A DNA stretch of 12,617 nt from a virus (IMGVR_UViG_2778261256_000009); one strand, 5' to 3'. Shown: positions 1 through 12,617, counted from the first letter of the stretch. The notes: generated by a model from the sequence alone, not told the origin. Translations and numbers: made by a program.

Positions 1-38
1 CATTTGATCATATGACAAGATGTGTATCTACCTTAACT

Positions 39-62
39 TAATGATTTTGATAAAAATCATTA
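39..62. repeat. Perfect 10-bp inverted repeat TAATGATTTT-gata-AAAATCATTA, just left of where lambda ren-like homology begins
   Basis: Read directly from the sequence: arms at 39-48 and 53-62 are exact reverse complements with a 4-nt spacer. No T-run follows, so it is not an obvious intrinsic terminator. Could be an operator or protein-binding site, or a recombination junction. Confidence 0.35.
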
Positions 63-329
63 GGGGATTCATCAGCGCATAATAGCTTCTGTGCGCCGGA
101 CGTTGCCGCGCTAACAGGCGCAACAGTAACCAGCATAAATCAGGCCGCGGCTAAAATGGCACGGGCAGGTCTTCTGGTTATCGAAGGTAAGGTCTGGCGA
201 ACGGTGTATTACCGGTTTGCTACCAGGGAAGAACGGGAAGGAAAGATGAGCACGAACCTGATTTTTAAGGAGTGTCGCCAGAGTGCCGCGATGAAACGGG
301 TATTGGCGGTATATGGAGTTAAAAGATGA
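54..329 (+). pseudogene. ren: ren-like gene remnant (C-terminal ~90 codons of a lambda Ren homolog, 5' end replaced)
   Basis: The frame ending at TGA 327-329 translates to ...HNSFCAPDVAALTGATVTSINQAAAKMARAGLLVIEGKVWRTVYYRFATREEREGKMSTNLIFKECRQSAAMKRVLAVYGVKR, which matches lambda Ren as I recall it. In-frame stops lie at 39-53 and the first in-frame ATG is at 156, so the native N-terminus is missing. Confidence 0.55.
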
Positions 330-2590: not shown

Positions 2591-2675
2591 AGTCAGAGAT
2601 AACAATCAACTAATACTGTTTTGTTGATTTTTGCTTGTAATTGGCGTTCTGGTCTGAGTTTTGTGGAGTAAGTTG

Positions 2676-3053
2676 ATGCGTGATATTCAGATGGTTCTTG
2701 AGCGTTGGGGAGCGTGGGCGGCTAATAATCATGAAGATGTGACCTGGTCGTCCATTGCCGCCGGTTTTAAGGGATTAATTCCTTCAAAAGTAAAATCTCG
2801 CCCACAATGTTGTGACGATGACGCGATGATCATTTGCGGGTGCATGGCCCGTCTGAAAAAGAACAACAGCGATTTGCATGATTTATTGGTGGACTATTAT
2901 GTCGGCGGCATGACTTTTATGGCGCTTGCACGTAAGCATGGGCGATCTGATTGTTGGGTTGGCAGGATGCTTCAGAAAGCTGAGGGCGTAGTGGAGGGTA
3001 TGCTGATGGTGTTGGATCTCCGATTGGAGATGGATGCTGATTGTTCGAAATAA
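2676..3053 (+). CDS. Q: Late-gene antiterminator Q (QuuD/phage-82-type)
   Basis: [33 protein letters not shown]...[31 protein letters not shown] resembles E. coli prophage QuuD-type Q (recalled). ATG at 2676 follows GGAG; the track ORF starts at an upstream TTG (2661). Confidence 0.85.
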
Positions 3054-3208: not shown

Positions 3209-3733
3209 TTATTGTTTAACCCATAATAATTCATTGACATTGAATCCCAACTTTTGAGCGGTTCGCACATAGTCTGCTTTTACTTTATCTGGAATAGTTG
3301 GGGTCCTTGCCAGAATCCATAGGTATTCTCTGTTCGGACCACTGACAAGAGCATACTTATACTCATCATCCAGTTTGATTACATTATAGCCACCATAGAA
3401 GGGGCCAAAAAACGAAACCTTCAATGCTGCAGTTTTAGTATCTCCAGTAAAGTATGCTTTACCTTCGCTCTCGCTCCATTTATTTTTCGTTGGATCGTAT
3501 CCACGGTTAAGTACACGAATCCCTCCGTCGTTCCGTTTTCCATAAGTAGCGCTGACCTGTTCCAGACCACGTTCGAACCGGTTCTCGAGGCGAGCTATTT
3601 CATACCATTTTCCGAGGTAGCGGTTGGCGTCAAAATTTGTAATCGGCTGCACACCTTTAGGTGGTGTCGGGGCCTTACATGCTATAAGAGTGAAAGAGAG
3701 TGCAATGCCAGTCAACACAGGCCATAACTTCAT
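3209..3733 (-). CDS. blc: Outer-membrane lipocalin lipoprotein, Blc family
   Basis: MKLWPVLTGIALSFTLIAC has a signal peptide and LIAC lipobox. ...NFDANRYLGKWYEIARLENRFERGLE...KVSFFGPFYGGYNVI...YLWILARTP strongly resembles E. coli Blc (recalled). Confidence 0.9.
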   Translation of the reverse strand: MKLWPVLTGIALSFTLIACKAPTPPKGVQPITNFDANRYLGKWYEIARLENRFERGLEQVSATYGKRNDGGIRVLNRGYDPTKNKWSESEGKAYFTGDTKTAALKVSFFGPFYGGYNVIKLDDEYKYALVSGPNREYLWILARTPTIPDKVKADYVRTAQKLGFNVNELLWVKQ

Positions 3734-3925
3734 AATAAATCCTGTACTTTTGATAGTTGAGAGTAAGTATGAAAGATAGATGATTACGACCGATCACTTA
3801 AAGAACTTTCATACTATATTAGGAATAGTCCATAACAGAAAAATTGTCAGTGATGACGCCAGAAAGGCAATTTATTCCGTGCACTACACAGTTTATGTGT
3901 TAATGAATTAGTCAAGGGGGAGAAT

Positions 3926-4885
3926 ATGATAAAAAAACCTGTGATTGGAATCAGCGGTTGTTTGGCCGGTTCTGCTGTTCGTTTTGATGGTGGTCACAAA
4001 AGAGCTGACTTTTTAATGGACAAATTAGTGGAATGGGTAACATTCAGACCAGTATGTCCGGAAATGGCTATAGGGCTGCCAGTTCCGCGTCCTGCTCTAC
4101 GTCTTGTGCGCTCGATGCAAGGAAATATACGGATGTGTTTCAGCCACGACCAGAATGAGGATGTGACAGAGAGAATGACAGAGTTTAGTCGTTCTTATAT
4201 GGACAAATTAAAGGATGTATCGGGGTTTGTGGTTTGTGCTAAATCTCCCAGCTGTGGCATGGAGCGCGTGCGTGTCTATGATGAAAATGGTAATCGAGGT
4301 CGTAAAGATGGAGTGGGACTATTTACGAGCACTTTGATGGAAAAGTTTTCCTGGCTACCGGTTGAAGAGGATGGGCGATTACATGATCCAGTGCTTCGTG
4401 AGAATTTTGTTGAAAGAGTTTTTGCTTTGCATGAGCTCAATCACCTTTACAAGGAGAAATTATCAAGAAGAGAGTTATTAGCTTTTCATAGTCGTTATAA
4501 GCTTCAGTTGTTGGCGCATAGTCAGGCAGGCTATAAAGATATGGGACCATTTGTGGCTGCAATACACGAGTGGGCGGACCTTGAATCATACTTTGAGGTG
4601 TATCGTGATAAGCTGATGGCGATTCTCAGAAAACCTGCATCACGTAAAAATCACACGAATGTGTTGATGCATATACAGGGGTATTTTAGTAACTACTTAA
4701 GTACACGCCAGCGTAAAGAGTTGAGCGAGGTTATACTTAACTATCGTTCTGGCACATTACCTCTTCTTGCGCCGTTGACTCTGCTGAAGCATTATCTGGG
4801 TGAGTATCCTAATGATTACTTGCTTACACAGAATTACTTCGATCCCTATCCGGACGAACTGGCTCTAAGACTGACGGTAAATTAA
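3926..4885 (+). CDS. DUF523 (TudS-like) + DUF1722 fusion protein, YbgA/RudS-like putative [4Fe-4S] thiouracil/4-thiouridine desulfidase
   Basis: N-terminal MIKKPVIGISGCLAGSAVRFDGGHK..RPVCPEM..VVCAKSPSCGME has Cys at approximately residues 12, 44, 104 and 110, consistent with the Cys ligands of TudS-family desulfidases. The C-terminal half resembles DUF1722 (YbgA-like). RBS AAGGGGGAG precedes the ATG. Family assignment is from memory. Confidence 0.7.
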   Translation: MIKKPVIGISGCLAGSAVRFDGGHKRADFLMDKLVEWVTFRPVCPEMAIGLPVPRPALRLVRSMQGNIRMCFSHDQNEDVTERMTEFSRSYMDKLKDVSGFVVCAKSPSCGMERVRVYDENGNRGRKDGVGLFTSTLMEKFSWLPVEEDGRLHDPVLRENFVERVFALHELNHLYKEKLSRRELLAFHSRYKLQLLAHSQAGYKDMGPFVAAIHEWADLESYFEVYRDKLMAILRKPASRKNHTNVLMHIQGYFSNYLSTRQRKELSEVILNYRSGTLPLLAPLTLLKHYLGEYPNDYLLTQNYFDPYPDELALRLTVN

Positions 4886-5227
4886 TTGTATGCGATATCA
4901 TCCAAAAGGATGAGTTCCTGCATGCAGGATATTTACAATCGTAAAAACTACACTATGATACCCAGAGTGTCAGTTTGTATAAAAACTCTGTTTACGCTGA
5001 AGAAACAATTGAGATGCAACTTAAAGTTGGTAAACATGCCAGTCAAAATATATAATATTATGATTCCACGCAGCTATATATAATATAACAGATTGGTTTA
5101 ATAATTTGTCTTTGTGAGTTAAATACATAATTTTATACTTGTGATGCAATGAAATTTTCCTTATTGTTGAACTGGCGAATATTGATTTTCCACCTATACT
5201 TACCTGGTGTAACCCCAATGATATCAG

Positions 5228-5968
5228 GTGGATAATATGCCATACATATGTTCTATCATTTTGGTGTTGAACTCGTTTGATGTCCGAATTGGTAAAGAAG
5301 ATATTTTGTTTAAAAAAGGAAGTGCTGTTCTCATTGATTACAATTTAAAAGATTTTTTTTCATCAAATATAGATCATGTAATGATCGTAGATGTTGAAGA
5401 GAAAACAGTTAATGATTTCTTTAAAAGCAACACACTCTCACCTTTTTCTGTAAGAAGGTTTTATCCGGCATACTTGATGGTGGAATGTGAAGATTTTTCA
5501 TTGTTAAAGAACTTGATTGCATGCTTGAATTGTGATGGCAGAACTGTGGATTTTGTTAGAAATCAAATATCACTTGCATGTCTTGCTATCTTATCTTCAG
5601 AGAAAATAGTGCAAAGTTTTTTATTTGGATGTCTTAATAGTTTAGGAAGTAAAGTTAAGGCTATTATTCACACGGATATATCTGCAGCATGGAGACTTTG
5701 TGATATATCTTCAAGACTGTATCTGAGTGAAAGTCTGTTAAAAAGAAAATTAAAGCACGAAGGCTTATCATTTAGTAAGTTAATTCTTGAAGAGCGAATG
5801 GTGATGGCGGAAAGGTTATTAAGCTACAATTTATATTCTGTTGGAAAAGTTGCTGAGATATGCGGTTATGAAAACACGTCATATTTTGTAAGTGTTTTCA
5901 GAAGGTATTTTGGTGTTCCTCCCCATCAATATTCATCAAGATTTTTTTTAGAAAAAGACATGATGTAA
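5228..5968 (+). CDS. AraC/XylS-family transcriptional regulator (C-terminal HTH), AT-rich
   Basis: The C-terminal region ...LYLSESLLKRKLKHEGLSFSKLILEERMVMAERLLSYNLYSVGKVAEICGYENTSYFVSVFRRYFGVPPHQY is a typical AraC-type double HTH. The gene and its 340-bp upstream region are markedly AT-rich. Start may be ATG 5228 or ATG 5237, which follows AGGTGG. Confidence 0.8.
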   Translation: MDNMPYICSIILVLNSFDVRIGKEDILFKKGSAVLIDYNLKDFFSSNIDHVMIVDVEEKTVNDFFKSNTLSPFSVRRFYPAYLMVECEDFSLLKNLIACLNCDGRTVDFVRNQISLACLAILSSEKIVQSFLFGCLNSLGSKVKAIIHTDISAAWRLCDISSRLYLSESLLKRKLKHEGLSFSKLILEERMVMAERLLSYNLYSVGKVAEICGYENTSYFVSVFRRYFGVPPHQYSSRFFLEKDMM

Positions 5969-6155: not shown

Positions 6156-6371
6156 ATGAAATCCATGGATAAGTTAACAACGGGTGTCGCCTATGGCACC
6201 TCAGCAGGTAGTGCCGGTTACTGGTTTTTACAGCTGCTCGATAAAGTCACGCCCTCACAGTGGGCAGCAATAGGTGTGCTGGGTAGCCTGGTATTTGGCC
6301 TGCTGACGTACCTGACAAACCTTTATTTCAAGATTAAAGAAGATAAGCGCAAGGCTGCGAGAGGTGAATAA
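6156..6371 (+). CDS. S: Class II holin / pinholin (phage 21 S-like), with dual-start motif
   Basis: 71 aa, [71 protein letters not shown]. Two Met codons (M1 and M4) fit the antiholin/holin dual start. Two hydrophobic segments; resembles S21/EssD (recalled). RBS GGAGGTGAGG. Confidence 0.9.
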
Positions 6372-6868
6372 TGCCTCCATCATTACGAAAAGCCGTTGCT
6401 GCTGCTATTGGTGGCGGAGCAATTGCTATAGCATCAGTGTTAATCACTGGCCCAAGTGGTAACGATGGTCTGGAAGGTGTCAGCTACATACCATACAAAG
6501 ATATCGTTGGCGTATGGACTGTATGTCACGGGCATACAGGAAAAGACATCATTCCCGGTAAAACGTATACCGAAGCAGAATGCAAAGCCCTCCTGAATAA
6601 AGACCTTGCCACGGTAGCCAGACAAATTAACCCGTACATCAAAGTCGATATACCGGAAACAACGCGCGGCGCTCTTTACTCGTTCGTCTATAACGTGGGC
6701 GCAGGCAATTTCAGAACATCTACTCTTCTTCGCAAAATAAACCAGGGCGATATCAAGGGCGCATGTGACCAGCTACGTCGCTGGGCATACGCTGGCGGTA
6801 AGCAATGGAAAGGCCTGATGACTCGTCGTGAGATTGAGCGTGAGGTCTGTTTGTGGGGGCAACAATGA
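6371..6868 (+). CDS. R: SAR endolysin (T4-lysozyme-like muramidase, R21-type)
   Basis: N-terminal Gly/Ala-rich weakly hydrophobic segment [20 protein letters not shown] (signal-anchor-release domain), then [25 protein letters not shown] carrying the E-x8-D-x5-T catalytic triad. Start overlaps the holin stop. Confidence 0.9.
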
Positions 6869-7329
6869 GCAGGGTAACCGCGATTATCTCCGCTCTGGTT
6901 ATCTGCATCGTCGTCTGCCTGTCATGGGGTGTTAATCATTACCGTGATAACGCCATCGCCTACAAAGAACAGCGCGACAAAAATGCCAGAGAACTGAAGC
7001 TGGCGAACGCGGCAATTACTGACATGCAGATGCGTCAGCGTGATGTTGCTGCGCTCGATGCAAAATACACGAAGGAGTTAGCTGATGCGAAAGCTGAAAA
7101 TGATGTTCTGCGTGATGATGTTGCCGCTGGTCGTCGTCGGTTGCACATCAAAGCAGTCTGTCAGTCAGTGCGTGAAGCCACCACCGCCTCCGGCGTGGAT
7201 AATGCAGCCTCCCCCCGACTGGCAGACACCGCTGAACGGGATTATTTCACCCTCCGGGAACGACTGGTAATGATGCAGGCCCAACTTGAAGGTGCTCAGC
7301 AATACATAACCGAGCAGTGTTTAAAGTAA
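6865..7329 (+). CDS. Rz: Rz i-spanin
   Basis: ATG at 6865 overlaps the endolysin stop (ATGA). N-terminal TM segment [21 protein letters not shown] followed by a charged, coiled-coil-like periplasmic domain. Resembles lambda Rz. Confidence 0.85.
7085..7270 (+). CDS. Rz1: Rz1 o-spanin lipoprotein, embedded in the +1 frame of Rz
   Basis: [53 protein letters not shown] has a lipobox (VVGC) and a proline-rich mature region. Lies wholly inside Rz in another frame, the classic spanin arrangement. Confidence 0.8.
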
Positions 7330-7466
7330 AATCTTAACTACAATATGATTCATTTTGATGATTGTTTCATAAGGAACAGTGAAGTAAGATCTAAGAGGAG
7401 TTAAATTTTATACAGTATAATCATAATATTGCAGCAAGGTGGTTATAATTGAAAGAATATTTAGAT

Positions 7467-8924
7467 ATGAATACATCTCATGTAAGAGTTGTTACTCATA
7501 TGTGTGGGTTCCTGGTTTGGCTCTATAGTCTTTCAATGTTGCCACCAATGGTTGTAGCATTGTTTTATAAAGAAAAAAGCCTGTTCGTTTTCTTTATAAC
7601 TTTCGTTATATTTTTTTGCATTGGTGGCGGAGCGTGGTATACAACTAAGAAATCTGGCATTCAATTACGTACCCGTGATGGGTTTATTATAATTGTAATG
7701 TTTTGGATTTTGTTTTCTGTTATTAGTGCATTCCCTTTATGGATTGACTCAGAACTTAATTTAACGTTCATTGATGCTCTGTTTGAAGGGGTTTCTGGAA
7801 TAACAACAACAGGAGCAACTGTAATTGATGATGTTAGTTCATTACCTCGGGCATATTTGTACTATCGGTCACAGTTAAATTTTATAGGTGGTTTAGGAGT
7901 TATTGTTCTGGCGGTTGCTGTATTGCCATTATTGGGTATTGGTGGTGCAAAGCTTTATCAGTCAGAAATGCCGGGGCCATTTAAGGATGACAAACTCACT
8001 CCCCGCCTGGCCGATACGTCACGGACACTGTGGATAACTTATTCTTTATTAGGTATTGCTTGTATTGTCTGTTATAGACTTGCAGGAATGCCTTTGTTTG
8101 ATGCTATTTGTCACGGGATTTCCACAGTTTCGCTTGGTGGTTTCTCAACTCATAGCGAGAGTATCGGATATTTTAATAACTATTTGGTTGAGCTGGTGGC
8201 TGGTTCTTTTTCCCTGCTATCGGCTTTCAACTTCACTCTTTGGTATATTGTTATTAGCAGGAAAACGATAAAACCTTTAATCAGAGATATTGAACTTCGT
8301 TTCTTTCTGTTAATAGCCTTAGGGGTGATCATTGTTACCTCTTTCCAGGTCTGGCATATAGGTATGTATGACTTGCATGGAAGTTTTATTCATTCGTTTT
8401 TTCTTGCCAGCTCCATGCTCACTGATAATGGTTTAGCTACGCAGGATTATGCAAGTTGGCCCACGCACACGATAGTGTTTTTGCTGTTGTCAAGTTTCTT
8501 TGGGGGATGTATAGGTTCAACTTGTGGTGGAATTAAGTCACTTCGATTTCTTATACTTTTCAAACAAAGCAAACACGAGATAAATCAGCTTTCTCATCCC
8601 AGAGCGTTGTTGAGTGTAAATGTAGGAGGGAAGATAGTTACAGATCGTGTAATGAGGTCTGTATGGAGTTTCTTTTTTCTTTATACTCTCTTCACGGTGT
8701 TTTTTATACTGGTGTTAAATGGTATGGGATATGATTTTCTTACATCATTTGCAACAGTGGCTGCATGTATTAATAATATGGGATTAGGTTTTGGGGCTAC
8801 TGCATCGTCATTCGGAGTGCTTAATGACATTGCAAAATGTTTAATGTGCATAGCTATGATTCTTGGTCGCCTTGAAATTTATCCTGTTATTATATTGTTT
8901 TCAGGTTTTTTTTGGCGCTCCTAA
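7467..8924 (+). CDS. trkG: TrkH/TrkG-family potassium uptake transporter (Rac-prophage TrkG-like)
   Basis: 485-aa polytopic membrane protein from ATG 7467, MNTSHVRVVTHMCGFLVWLYSL..., with several glycine-containing selectivity-filter-like P-loops (e.g. GVSGITTTGATV, GISTVSLGGFS, ACINNMGLGFG). AT-rich. Matches E. coli K-12 TrkG as recalled. The track ORF starts at an upstream TTG (7449). Confidence 0.9.
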   Translation: MNTSHVRVVTHMCGFLVWLYSLSMLPPMVVALFYKEKSLFVFFITFVIFFCIGGGAWYTTKKSGIQLRTRDGFIIIVMFWILFSVISAFPLWIDSELNLTFIDALFEGVSGITTTGATVIDDVSSLPRAYLYYRSQLNFIGGLGVIVLAVAVLPLLGIGGAKLYQSEMPGPFKDDKLTPRLADTSRTLWITYSLLGIACIVCYRLAGMPLFDAICHGISTVSLGGFSTHSESIGYFNNYLVELVAGSFSLLSAFNFTLWYIVISRKTIKPLIRDIELRFFLLIALGVIIVTSFQVWHIGMYDLHGSFIHSFFLASSMLTDNGLATQDYASWPTHTIVFLLLSSFFGGCIGSTCGGIKSLRFLILFKQSKHEINQLSHPRALLSVNVGGKIVTDRVMRSVWSFFFLYTLFTVFFILVLNGMGYDFLTSFATVAACINNMGLGFGATASSFGVLNDIAKCLMCIAMILGRLEIYPVIILFSGFFWRS

Positions 8925-9061
8925 TATATGGCTGATTTATAATTGTGAGTTTAATATTATGTTGACTCACTCATTGATCCAATACCTAACTTTACCAGCA
9001 ACCCCTCCGTCCCCAGTAGCACTGGCTGCTGGGGTGCGTTTTATTCATAAAGCAAGGCTGT

Positions 9062-9853
9062 ATGAGCGAGAAATTAAAGATAGTCTATCGCCCATTACAA
9101 GAATTGTCACCGTATGCGCACAACGCCAGGACGCACAGCCCTGAGCAGGTGGCACAACTGGTAGAAAGTATTAAGCAATTCGGCTGGACTAATCCGGTGC
9201 TGATTGACGAAAAGGGCGAAATTATTGCGGGTCACGGTCGTGTTATGGCGGCTGAAATGCTCAAAATGGATTCTGTTCCGGTCATTGTTCTGTCTGGCCT
9301 GACGGATGAGCAGAAAAAGGCGTACCGCCTGGCAGATAATCGCCTGCCGATGAATGCTGGCTGGGATGAAGATCTGTTGCGGATGGAGCTGTCGGACCTA
9401 ATCAATGCTGATTTTGATGTCTCCCTGACAGGCTTCATCCCGACAGAAATTGATGAACTGTTGACGGATGTTTTGCCCGGTACAGGAAATGAGGAGGAGC
9501 CGTATACGACGAAAATTGATACGCCTGTTTATGAGCCGTCGGGCGGTAAACCGGATATCAGTGAACTGTACGACGATACGAAAACTCAGGAGCTGATCAG
9601 CCGGATACGTTCGGCGTCCCTTGAGCCTGATATTGAGAAATTCCTCCTGTGTGCGGCAGAACGTCACACGGTGTTTAATTTCAGCAGAATTGCGGACTAT
9701 TACGCTCACGCCCCCTCTGAAATTCAGTGTTTTTTCGAGGAGTCGGCGCTGGTGATCATTGATTATCAGCAGGCTATTGAAAATGGATTTGTCCGGATGA
9801 CGCAGCGCATGGTGGAGATCATGCATGGTGGTGAGGAGGAGGAATATGCGTGA
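9062..9853 (+). CDS. ParB N-terminal-domain (ParB/Srx-like nuclease domain) protein, YnaK-like
   Basis: The N-terminus LKIVYRPLQELSPYAHNARTHSPEQVAQLVESIKQFGWTNPVLIDEKGEIIAGHGRVMAAEML shows the ParB-N fold signature, including a GxxR box. C-terminus is acidic. Occupies the position after trkG that ynaK holds in Rac (recalled). Confidence 0.75.
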   Translation: MSEKLKIVYRPLQELSPYAHNARTHSPEQVAQLVESIKQFGWTNPVLIDEKGEIIAGHGRVMAAEMLKMDSVPVIVLSGLTDEQKKAYRLADNRLPMNAGWDEDLLRMELSDLINADFDVSLTGFIPTEIDELLTDVLPGTGNEEEPYTTKIDTPVYEPSGGKPDISELYDDTKTQELISRIRSASLEPDIEKFLLCAAERHTVFNFSRIADYYAHAPSEIQCFFEESALVIIDYQQAIENGFVRMTQRMVEIMHGGEEEEYA

Positions 9854-10778
9854 TGATTTTTGCGCCTTTATTCTGACTCACGGGCGACCGGACAAAGTTC
9901 TGACTTACCGGACGTTGCGTCGTGCTGGCTATACCGGGAAAATTTTTATCGTTGTTGATGATGAAGATAAGACACGGAATCAGTACATGGCTGAATTTGG
10001 TGAACAGGTGCTGGTGTTTTCCAAAGCCGATATCGCCAGTCGTTTTGACGAAGCCGATAATTTCTGTGACCGCCGCTCAATTTTTTACGCCCGTAATGCC
10101 TGTTTCGACCTGGCAAAACTGGTCGGGTGTAAATACTTCATTCAGCTCGATGATGATTATCACGAGTTCCAGTTTCGGGTGGATCGCAACTATGACCAGG
10201 CCTATTTTCCGATAAGGAAACTGGATGCGATCCTTTCTGAAATGCTGGCGTACTACGAATCAATACCTGCTCTTTCCATCGCTATGTCGCAGGGCGGGGA
10301 TTTTCTTGGTGACAATGGCGGCCATGCTTCGTGGGTGAAACGCAAGGCAATGAACAGCTTTATCTGTTCGGTTGATCGACCGTTCTCATTCATGGGGCGC
10401 ATTAACGAGGATGTGAATACGTACACGAATCTCGGTCGCTGTGGTGAATTGTTTATGACGATCGGTGCTGTCCAGTTAGGGCAGAAACAGACGCAGAAAA
10501 ACAGCGGCGGAATGACCGAGCTGTATCTGGATTCCGGAACCTACGTTAAAAGTTTTTACTCCGTCATGTATGCGCCGTCGTGCGTAAAAATCTCACTGAT
10601 GGGTGCCAGCCATAAACGCATTCACCATCAGGTCACCTGGAACAACGCTGCAGTAAAAATCCTTCACGAAAAATACAGGAAGAAGACACCCTGCATATCA
10701 ATGGGGGTGACAAATGATTCCGTATTCGAAAGTCGAGTCTCTGGCAGCGTGCCGGATGACTGCACAACAAATCGCTGA
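9846..10778 (+). CDS. Uncharacterised protein with a GT-A-fold-like motif pattern (possible nucleotide-sugar transferase); function unknown
   Basis: ATG at 9846 follows a strong GAGGAGGAGG RBS and overlaps the ParB-like stop by 8 nt. The pattern FILTHGRPDKV .. IFIVVDDEDK .. YFIQLDDDYH resembles the beta1 / DD / DxD layout of GT-A glycosyltransferases. This is a motif-level inference only. Confidence 0.55.
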   Translation: MRDDFCAFILTHGRPDKVLTYRTLRRAGYTGKIFIVVDDEDKTRNQYMAEFGEQVLVFSKADIASRFDEADNFCDRRSIFYARNACFDLAKLVGCKYFIQLDDDYHEFQFRVDRNYDQAYFPIRKLDAILSEMLAYYESIPALSIAMSQGGDFLGDNGGHASWVKRKAMNSFICSVDRPFSFMGRINEDVNTYTNLGRCGELFMTIGAVQLGQKQTQKNSGGMTELYLDSGTYVKSFYSVMYAPSCVKISLMGASHKRIHHQVTWNNAAVKILHEKYRKKTPCISMGVTNDSVFESRVSGSVPDDCTTNR

Positions 10779-10965
10779 CGTTCTGGATGTTGATCTGAAC
10801 CGACTGAAAGAAAATCGGGAAGCAATGACAGATTTTTATGCGGCCATCCGTAAGGGCAGAGCGAAAGGTGAAGCCGAGTTACGAGCGGCATTGTTTAAGC
10901 TTGCCAGAAAAGGGGATGCCTTTGCTCTGCGCGAACTACTCAGGGTGGATAAAAATCAGGACTAA
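10756..10965 (+). CDS. Small putative HTH protein immediately upstream of, and in frame with, the terminase small subunit
   Basis: MTAQQIADVLDVDLNRLKENREAMTDFYAAIRKGRAKGEAELRAALFKLARKGDAFALRELL is HTH-like. A single TAA (10963-10965) separates it from the ATG at 10969 in the same frame. Start is ambiguous (10714 or 10756) and overlaps the upstream gene. Confidence 0.4.
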   Translation: MTAQQIADVLDVDLNRLKENREAMTDFYAAIRKGRAKGEAELRAALFKLARKGDAFALRELLRVDKNQD

Positions 10966-10968
10966 CTG

Positions 10969-12063
10969 ATGAGCAGACCGGACTGGGGGGCGTTGCAGCA
11001 GGAGTATATTGCTGAATACACCCGCTCCGGTATATCTCCGGTGGCATGGTGTGAAGCAAGGGGACTGAATTACGCAACAGCCCGTCGTTACATCAAAAAA
11101 ACTCCGAAAAATGCGCAGACAGAAATGTGCAAAACTGCGCAAAAAAGTGCGCAGAAAAAATCTGCGCAGACTGCACAAAAGCGGAACGAAAAATCTCAGG
11201 AAAAAAAGCCAGTATTCGATGCGGGCCTGAATGAGGGCGACGCGGAGGAATTTTCGTTCTGTCCCGATGAATTCGGCATTTCTGACCAGCAGGCTAAGTT
11301 TGCGATGCTTGTTGCTCAGGGTAAAAAGCCGACAGAGGCGTACCGACTAGCCGGTTATGAGGGGCAAGGTGCGACAGCTAACAGCAACGCCAGTCGTATG
11401 CTTAGAAATGCCAGGGTTTTTCGCGCTATCAGCTACTTCCGCAATCAGTACCAGAAACGCTATACCGCAGACCTGGATTTACTAGTGAGTCAGTTGATGG
11501 CTATTGCCCTGGCCGACCCCAATCAGCTTGCACAATTTCGCCGTGTTAACTGCCGTTATTGCTGGGGCGAGAATCATCTCTACCAGTGGCGCGATATAGC
11601 AGAATTCGACAAGGCAGCGGCGCAGGCTTCCAGAGATGGCAAACCCGAACCGGAATATGGAGGCCTCGGCTTTGTTGATAACGCCATACCCAATCCGGAC
11701 TGCCCGAAGTGCTGCGGTGAGGGAACGGGACAGCTTTATATGGCTGATACCACTCTGCTTGATGGGGATGCGCGGCAATTATATGCAGGGGCAAAATTCG
11801 GAAAATTCGGCGTTGAGATCCTGCTGGAGGATAAGGCTGCCGCCCGGCGTGAATTGTTGCGTTTGTTTTCTGCTGGCGGGGCTTTATGTGCAGATAAACG
11901 GCTACAGGAACTGGAAATTGAACGGCGCAGAATGGAAAACCAGAAGCTGCGCAAAGAGATCGAAACGGTGGAAGATAATGAACATCCCCAGCCTGTGGCG
12001 ATCAATATTAATGTGGTTGATGCCAGAGTAAGGAGTGATGAAGATGATCTCTCCGACGCTTAA
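10969..12063 (+). CDS. Terminase small subunit (Terminase_2-like domain) with a low-complexity AQK-rich linker
   Basis: The segment QQAKFAMLVAQGKKPTEAYRLAGYEGQGATANSNASRMLRNARVFRAISYF matches the conserved core of phage terminase small subunits as I know it. Lies immediately upstream of, and overlapping, a Walker-A-containing terminase large subunit. Confidence 0.7.
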   Translation: MSRPDWGALQQEYIAEYTRSGISPVAWCEARGLNYATARRYIKKTPKNAQTEMCKTAQKSAQKKSAQTAQKRNEKSQEKKPVFDAGLNEGDAEEFSFCPDEFGISDQQAKFAMLVAQGKKPTEAYRLAGYEGQGATANSNASRMLRNARVFRAISYFRNQYQKRYTADLDLLVSQLMAIALADPNQLAQFRRVNCRYCWGENHLYQWRDIAEFDKAAAQASRDGKPEPEYGGLGFVDNAIPNPDCPKCCGEGTGQLYMADTTLLDGDARQLYAGAKFGKFGVEILLEDKAAARRELLRLFSAGGALCADKRLQELEIERRRMENQKLRKEIETVEDNEHPQPVAININVVDARVRSDEDDLSDA

Positions 12064-12547
12064 TGTGCCTCAGGCGCGATTTCTTTCAATGCCCCATAAA
12101 TTTAAAGCCTATATTGCTGGTTTTGGCTCGGGCAAAACATGGGTTGGGTGTGGCGGCATATGCAAGGGGATTTGGGAGCATCCAGGTATAAATCAGGGAT
12201 ATTTTGCGCCAACGTATCCCCAAATTCGCGATATTTTTTACCCTACAGTGGAAGAAGTTGCTGCTGACTGGGGATTGAACGTAAAAATTAATGAGGGAAA
12301 TAAAGAGGTTCACTTTTATTACGGACGCCAGTATCGGGGAACCACTATCTGCAGATCGATGGAGAAGCCACAAACGATCGTCGGTTTCAAAATTGGTAAT
12401 GCGTTGGTGGATGAACTGGACATTTTGCCGAAGGAAAAAGCCAGAACGGCGTGGCGCAAGATAATTGCACGTATGCGTTATAAGATTGATGGACTTCGCA
12501 ACGGTATTGACGTTACAACCACGCCGGAAGGATTCAAATTTGGGTGA
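12044..12547 (+). pseudogene. Terminase large subunit, N-terminal ATPase fragment truncated by an IS1 insertion
   Basis: Walker A motif AGFGSGKTW near the N-terminus. The ORF ends at a TGA (12545-12547) supplied by the first bases of the IS1 terminal repeat, so only about 167-170 codons remain; a full TerL would be about 450-600 aa. Start is 12035, 12038 or 12044; 12044 has the best RBS spacing (AGGAG at 12031-12035). Confidence 0.8.
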
Positions 12548-12617
12548 TGCTGCCAACTTACTGATTTAGTGTATGATGGTGTTTTTGAGGTGCTCCAGTG
12601 GCTTCTGTTTCTATCAG
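12543..12617 (+). mobile_element. insA: IS1 left end (terminal inverted repeat plus start of insA), continuing beyond the window
   Basis: GGTGATGCTGCCAACTTACTGATTTAGTGTATGATGGTGTTTTTGAGGTGCTCCAGTGGCTTCTGTTTCTATCAG matches the IS1 end and insA start (GTG at 12598, VASVSI...) as I recall it. Only 75 bp are in the window. Confidence 0.85.

Follow-up and report, generated by a model that had tools for sequence, protein, structure and literature searches.

The potassium transporter gene trkG lies in the Rac prophage of E. coli K-12 beside lysis genes held to be decayed, and the locus raises the question of whether the gene is ancestral phage cargo or came to this position in some other way. The original prediction concerned a window of 12,617 nt (the whole stretch of viral DNA analyzed here, IMGVR_UViG_2778261256_000009), in which trkG directly follows an apparently intact lysis cassette; it held the window to be a less-decayed relative of the Rac late region. 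We confirm the observation and find support for its interpretation, subject to minor corrections. The arrangement itself is already known or can be read from existing annotation in hundreds of public genomes. From 1991 onward, the literature has reportedly treated trkG as a foreign, AT-rich gene, borne by a prophage, for a functional K+ transporter. In 2022 it was restated as foreign, AT-rich, prophage-borne, and damped by H-NS yet functional (PMC9898762). The reading that we consider very probable is that trkG is cargo of the classic lambdoid moron kind, self-contained, placed behind Rz and expressed in the lysogen, and that K-12 Rac is a deletion derivative; it draws on the observed identity of the gene, anatomy of its module, presence and absence in relatives, and two deletions in K-12.

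The gene in the window is the trkG of Rac: its product matches K-12 TrkG (b1363) at 485 of 485 residues (100%), so the two are the same gene. Inactivating lesions were looked for, and we found an open reading frame with no internal stop and a full-length match to the TrkH family (Pfam PF02386; 484 bits against a cut-off of 27, E 5e-145, profile positions 3-500 of 502). The spacer starts at 7330, directly behind the stop codon of Rz (TAA at 7327-7329), and the trkG stop ends at 8924. TrkG also passes TIGR00933 (415 bits, cut-off 331) and matches phrog_1916, the TrkG family in PHROGs, with 1042 bits. It fails the TrkH equivalog model NF008020 (449.7 bits, cut-off 866), as expected of a paralogue sharing 41% identity with K-12 TrkH over its full length. 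Four motifs (SGITTTGA, VSLGGFST, TDNGLA and NNMGLGFG) hold columns that are invariant among 12 sequences down to 62% identity; going by the TrkH structures, we take these to be the pore-loop/selectivity-filter motifs with their conserved glycines.

The composition of the gene deviates from that of its neighbors. GC is 0.381 in trkG (0.323 at third positions), compared with 0.523 in Rz, 0.497 in the ParB-like gene and 0.512 in the small terminase gene; by our own arithmetic, this AT-richness lies about 9 standard deviations from an expected 0.50 over 1458 nt. With a GC of 0.255 in the spacer against 0.50-0.52 in the neighbors, both the gene and the spacer are AT-rich as predicted.

Table 1. Features of the 12,617-nt window, in order of position
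Feature	Position	Strand	Basis or remark
IS10 end (presumed)	1-75		Recognized by sequence; followed by ren and nin-region genes
Q antiterminator homologue	2661-3053	+	
Blc-like lipocalin, cargo gene 1 of 3	3209-3733	-	
DUF523/DUF1722 (YbgA-like) protein, cargo gene 2 of 3	3926-4885	+	
AraC-family regulator, cargo gene 3 of 3	5228-5968	+	
Holin, phage 21 S type, 71 aa	6156-6371	+	Pfam PF04971, 121 bits; PHROG holin families
Lysozyme, RrrD / phage 21 R type, 165 aa	6371-6868	+	Pfam PF00959; RrrD 4zpu
Rz inner-membrane spanin, intact, 154 aa	6865-7329	+	Pfam PF03245, 179 bits; phrog_13, 1-154 of 154
Rz1 outer-membrane spanin lipoprotein, 61 aa	7085-7270	+	Inside Rz, other frame; phrog_3198, E 3.5e-29
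AT-rich spacer, 137 nt, with trkG promoter region	7330-7466	+	GC 0.255; K-12 identity
trkG, Trk-family K+ transporter membrane subunit, 485 aa	7467-8924 (from ATG)	+	K-12 TrkG identity; Pfam TrkH
Terminator-like G+C-rich hairpin, then UUUUAUU	9008-9045 (hairpin 9008-9038)	+	Scan (9011-9034); fold
ParB/Srx-N-domain protein, full length, 263 aa	9062-9853	+	Pfam PF02195; phrog_620, E 8.5e-91
Glycosyltransferase-like protein (TET-associated glycosyltransferase family)	9825-10778	+	Pfam PF20691, 121 bits; phrog_842
Small ORF	10714-10965	+	
Small terminase (TerS)	10969-12063	+	Pfam PF03592; phrog_51, E 6.5e-76
Large terminase, N-terminal 170 codons	12035-12547	+	phrog_2 / phrog_38319, 1-166 of 271 matched
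IS1 end (presumed)	12543-12617		Cuts large terminase; junction in common with NZ_AP023286

On both sides of trkG, the predicted genes are present (Table 1). Upstream, holin, lysozyme, Rz and Rz1 (6156-7329) are four intact open reading frames with full-length family matches, a cassette of the phage 21/DLP12 type. The holin, with 94% DNA identity to essD of DLP12, begins M-K-S-M, so it may have a dual start. The lysozyme differs from the solved RrrD structure 4zpu by four substitutions in 165 residues, matches 3hde end to end, and has a hydrophobic N-terminus like that of signal-anchor-release endolysins. Rz1 shows a lipobox-like VVGC as well as a run of prolines; over its full length it is 98% identical to K-12 rzoR. 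Downstream, Pfam identifies the ParB-like gene and the small terminase gene.

The borders of the trkG module can be read from its relatives. On the left side, Rz genes of the DLP12 type match by megablast up to 7254, and the last 75 nt of Rz (7255-7329) go with trkG and not with those genes; the interval 6865-7466 is covered to at least 80% in 1479 genomes, near the 1551 genomes with trkG. On the right, the hairpin is predicted to fold with -22.5 kcal/mol (z = -4.07 relative to shuffled sequences) and has a short U-run behind it, and homology to the trkG-less relative STEC711 starts at 9039, the first base after the hairpin. Hence, the left break and the right start of homology delimit a mobile unit of about 7255-9038. 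With the 3' end of Rz, the spacer, trkG and the hairpin, this unit has the textbook anatomy of a lambdoid moron.

What occupies the place of this module differs among lambdoid prophages. STEC711 has the ParB-to-TerS backbone from 9039 on, no trkG, and a different lysis cassette. DLP12 of K-12 has borD, on the opposite strand, behind a holin-lysozyme-Rz block with 94% identity. The position after Rz is a variable cargo slot in these prophages, and trkG shows what marks a moron: presence and absence at the same position, deviant composition, and its own terminator in the form of the predicted hairpin. A literature search that joined trkG with moron returned nothing related, judged by titles.

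Two other sets of genes around this backbone were seen in passing. A ParB-like and glycosyltransferase-like pair (9062-10778) lies just ahead of TerS, also in the trkG-less relative. The N-terminus of the ParB-like protein is akin to that of phage DNA methyltransferases (PADLOC MTase_II, phrog_498), and a TET or methylase domain is absent from the pair; a role in DNA modification or packaging is possible. In STEC711, the slot between Q and holin (L104 1901-3119) holds, by record annotation, a scabin-related ADP-ribosyltransferase and the binding subunit of a subtilase-family AB5 toxin, and this toxin cargo takes the position held by stx in Stx phages.

The spacer ahead of trkG has no mismatches to K-12. 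It contains two consensus TATAAT hexamers (7416-7421 and 7444-7449) without a matching -35, and no canonical -35/-10 pair was identifiable in it by consensus scan; the sigma-70 consensus scan gave 5 promoter-like sites, fewer than the 8.4 in shuffled sequence. The sole scan match in the spacer (7320-7349, 9 of 12 positions) was rejected as a promoter because it is weak and not conserved in E. albertii. Both hexamers are kept in the diverged E. albertii allele, as is a ribosome-site-like AAGGTGG (7436-7442) that lies 6 bases before an in-frame TTG at 7449. In K-12, Rac has few sites that bind the sigma-70 holoenzyme constitutively, and genomic SELEX located one of them at trkG (PMC5811629). A luciferase reporter driven by the trkG promoter is active, and expression is lowered, though not silenced, by H-NS and StpA (PMC9898762). 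The claim that trkG has its own upstream promoter region thus agrees with published polymerase binding and reporter activity on the same spacer, and promoter activity in the window would carry over from that work, not from the scan.

Translation may start at ATG 7467 (485 aa) or at TTG 7449 (491 aa). The 491-aa length is annotated in several phage records and many homologues, and the six extra residues are not conserved.

As a moron, trkG would be transcribed in the lysogen from its own sigma-70 promoter, partly damped by H-NS, and TrkG together with host TrkA (and SapD) would give the cell a second, Na+-dependent Trk route of K+ uptake. We take the promoter, the repression by H-NS and the transport activity from what has been published for the same sequence in K-12, and they presumably apply to the window as well. 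During lytic growth, Q-antiterminated late transcripts would also run through trkG, and this read-through is probable since the gene has the orientation of the late operon and no terminator-like site lies between Rz and trkG. Conservation suggests a selective benefit to the lysogen.

The same late read-through could be taken to mean that trkG serves the phage. If the gene were expressed with the lysis genes from the late promoter, its K+/Na+ flux might change the membrane potential or the ion balance toward the end of infection, and this might set when the pinholin triggers or offset the loss of K+ caused by a superinfecting phage. The position of trkG directly behind the lysis genes on their strand, the lack of a terminator-like site in the scan of the Rz-trkG interval, and the link to the Rz 3' end, kept even in the diverged E. 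albertii allele, agree with such a role; however, trkG is 100% identical in K-12 Rac although Q, holin and lysozyme are deleted there, it is expressed and active in K-12 with no lytic cycle taking place (PMC9898762), it has a site of its own for RNA polymerase (PMC5811629), and TrkG has no match among the PADLOC defence models. Hence, we regard a benefit to the phage as very unlikely. The more specific proposal, that trkG belongs to a late program with the pinholin-type cassette, tuning lysis or buffering K+, and that its fusion to the 3' end of Rz is a functional coupling, strikes us as decidedly improbable.

How a moron of this kind came to stand behind Rz can be followed through its relatives. 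The E. albertii allele (93% protein and 84% DNA identity) retains the spacer together with 43 nt from the 3' end of Rz; hence, capture beside Rz predates that divergence. In E. albertii NBRC 107761 (L006 3819-7043), trkG lies amid copC/copD-like genes, holE and rsmF, with an NleF-like effector gene adjoining and no other phage genes within 4 kb. Homologues with 62-79% identity have chromosomal settings with no phage genes nearby in the relatives inspected (E. fergusonii, Citrobacter, Pectobacterium, Morganella, Enterobacter and Buttiauxella): those of Pectobacterium and Morganella lie immediately downstream of pth-ychF, and that of Enterobacter adjoins genes resembling ftsP, plsC and parC. Their GC (0.42-0.57) is mostly near that of the surroundings, and they are less AT-rich than trkG. 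Genome scan and protein search for a donor found nothing between 93% (E. albertii, which has this same module) and 79% (E. fergusonii). The deeper origin of trkG appears to be chromosomal. The description of trkG as ancestral phage cargo is therefore right in that the gene predates the decay of Rac, but it applies to a module of Escherichia, with the inspected 62-79% relatives being chromosomal.

Such chromosomal relatives could suggest that trkG is a host gene caught beside the attachment site by faulty prophage excision, i.e. by specialized transduction, and the gene has been described loosely as acquired "through bacteriophage transduction" (PMC9898762). In the relatives, however, trkG lies amid the genes of the late operon, with over 15 kb between it and either prophage end, and in other lambdoids the slot is filled by unrelated cargo. 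Position and shared slot fit insertion by illegitimate recombination, and we hold capture by faulty excision to be very unlikely.

The timing of this insertion relative to the decay of Rac follows from comparison with K-12. By blastn, the whole window gave a single match to MG1655 Rac, 6885-9315 to K-12 1,423,200-1,425,630 (2431 nt, 99.7%, seven mismatches, no gaps); none of the mismatches is in the spacer, and the two in trkG are both synonymous. The match begins 20 nt into Rz; hence, rzpR is a pseudogene in K-12 and rzoR (Rz1) is intact. It had been claimed that Rz/Rz1 are decayed in K-12, which is overstated, as rzpR is without its first 20 nt only and rzoR is an intact open reading frame. 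At the other end, K-12 ynaK is the first third of the ParB-like gene, and the right deletion begins after 9315.

As the full-length Rac-type reference, we used ON470595 (vB_EcoS-683R6), which has racR and ydaS to ydaW. Relative to it, K-12 Rac has two clean internal deletions (L003 3358-11555 and 13987-25546), each with a 2-nt overlap at its junction. The left one (8.2 kb) starts inside ydaW, takes in Q, two tRNA genes, holin and lysozyme, and ends 20 nt into Rz; the right one (11.6 kb) runs from inside the ParB-like gene through terminases, portal, capsid and tail tube and ends just short of ydaY. Hence, trkG, which these deletions flank, is older than the decay of Rac. K-12 Rac itself is a decayed derivative that has lost both flanks and in which trkG was spared. 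That trkG instead entered Rac after decay in the K-12 lineage, with the window as an independent acquisition, is refuted by the match between window and Rac and by the deletion comparison with ON470595 and can be practically dismissed: the deviant composition marks the gene as foreign but is silent on arrival time, the 99.7% segment reaches into Rz and the ParB-like gene and ends there at the deletion junctions, and the same module lies within full late regions in hundreds of genomes.

A side observation concerns annotation. RefSeq calls ynaK in NZ_AP023286 (L105 16737-16994, corresponding to 9062-9319 of the window) a C-terminally incomplete pseudogene, and this sequence is 100% identical to the window, where the 263-aa open reading frame stays whole. 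K-12's shortened YnaK, used as the reference for a full-length gene, may be behind this call.

The window as a whole is a piece of an E. coli lambdoid prophage, a mosaic of the lambda type. Its early genes are ren, ninB and others of lambda type, and the Rac markers (racR, ydaS to ydaW, integration at ttcA) are not what it carries; the integration site of its own element falls beyond the window. The closest relatives carry cII, O, P, ren and nin genes of the lambda type and are sited between ybhC and bioA, the lambda attachment site. The element is not Rac, with the late module alone in common. It is also defective itself: the ren region is interrupted at 75/76 by an end that we take to be of IS10, and the large terminase is cut after codon 170 by what we take to be an IS1 end (the IS1 annotation of NZ_AP023286 concurs), and hence the prophage cannot package DNA. 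In NZ_AP023286, a tail-fibre fragment follows the IS1. The view of the window as a less-decayed Rac late region therefore stands for the late module, with its 99.7% DNA identity, but not for the prophage, which is lambda-type and itself broken.

Between Q and holin (3209-5968), the window has three further cargo genes, for a lipocalin, a YbgA-like protein and an AraC-like regulator. The AraC-like gene is very AT-rich (GC 0.318), its best NCBIfam match is YdeO, under the cut-off, and in NZ_AP023286 it carries an inserted ISApl1-mcr-1-pap2-ISApl1 transposon.

The trkG module is widespread. Of 5426 complete E. coli genomes, 1551 have the gene with its flanks, and identity reaches at least 99% in 1516 of 1555 records; 718 E. 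coli genomes preserve an intact endolysin-Rz-trkG junction and 918 an intact trkG-ParB junction. It also occurs in 142 IMG/VR contigs and 10 GenBank phage records. Among IMG/VR loci, the full lysis cassette precedes trkG in 39 of the 71 with enough upstream sequence, and ParB, glycosyltransferase and TerS follow it in 35 of the 57 with enough downstream sequence. The order holin, lysozyme, Rz, trkG, ParB-like gene, TerS recurs in a Rac-type record, in a prophage at the lambda attachment site, and in E. ruysiae. Only 25 genomes have 80% or more of the full 12.6-kb window in one place; this particular mosaic is rarer than the trkG module. In a survey of 154 genomes, trkG was among the best-conserved Rac genes (PMC5700373). 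Most GenBank "phage" records with trkG are prophages predicted in clinical isolates (bioRxiv 10.1101/2022.06.29.498070) and hence are no proof of a viable virion that carries trkG. An apparent trkG pseudogene in Shigella flexneri SFBU0723 (CP182557.1; L022 3845-5561) was rejected: its 32 gap openings in 1.7 kb, many at homopolymers, look like uncorrected long-read assembly error.

These results give the origin of K-12 Rac with explicit coordinates, as two internal deletions around a kept Rz'-Rz1-trkG-ynaK' island, and show the trkG module moving among different lambdoid backbones. Their significance beyond tidiness is small.

Compared with known systems, trkG is closest in position to bor. In lambda, bor lies after Rz, and the lambdoid moron concept is that of Hendrix and Juhala; borD of DLP12 takes the same slot directly behind Rz as trkG. 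Lambdoid morons have deviant composition, their own promoter region, a terminator-like hairpin and patchy presence, and the same holds for trkG, with its promoter region published for the identical K-12 spacer. The cargo differs: the bor product is a lipoprotein of 12 kDa, and in DLP12 its gene lies on the opposite strand, whereas trkG encodes a 485-aa ion transporter on the strand of the late operon.

TrkH, the core-genome Trk subunit of E. coli, belongs to the same family and has the same length as TrkG. Both work with TrkA, but K+ uptake by TrkG through host TrkA is Na+-dependent and takes up some Na+ as well, neither of which holds for TrkH, and H-NS represses trkG but not trkH (PMC9898762).

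The K-12 Rac locus (rzpR'-rzoR-trkG-ynaK) is identical to the window in protein and spacer and shares its DNA, including the hairpin, at 99.7%. Unlike K-12 Rac, the window has holin, lysozyme, a complete Rz, a full-length ParB-like gene and terminase genes, and its early region is lambda-type whereas that of K-12 is Rac-type. From full-length Rac-like and lambda-att prophages in the databases there is essentially no difference: ON470595, E. coli 81EVA (NZ_CP138397) and NZ_AP023286 have the identical order from holin to TerS with 98.5-100% DNA identity, and NZ_AP023286 adds the mcr-1 transposon in its AraC-like gene.
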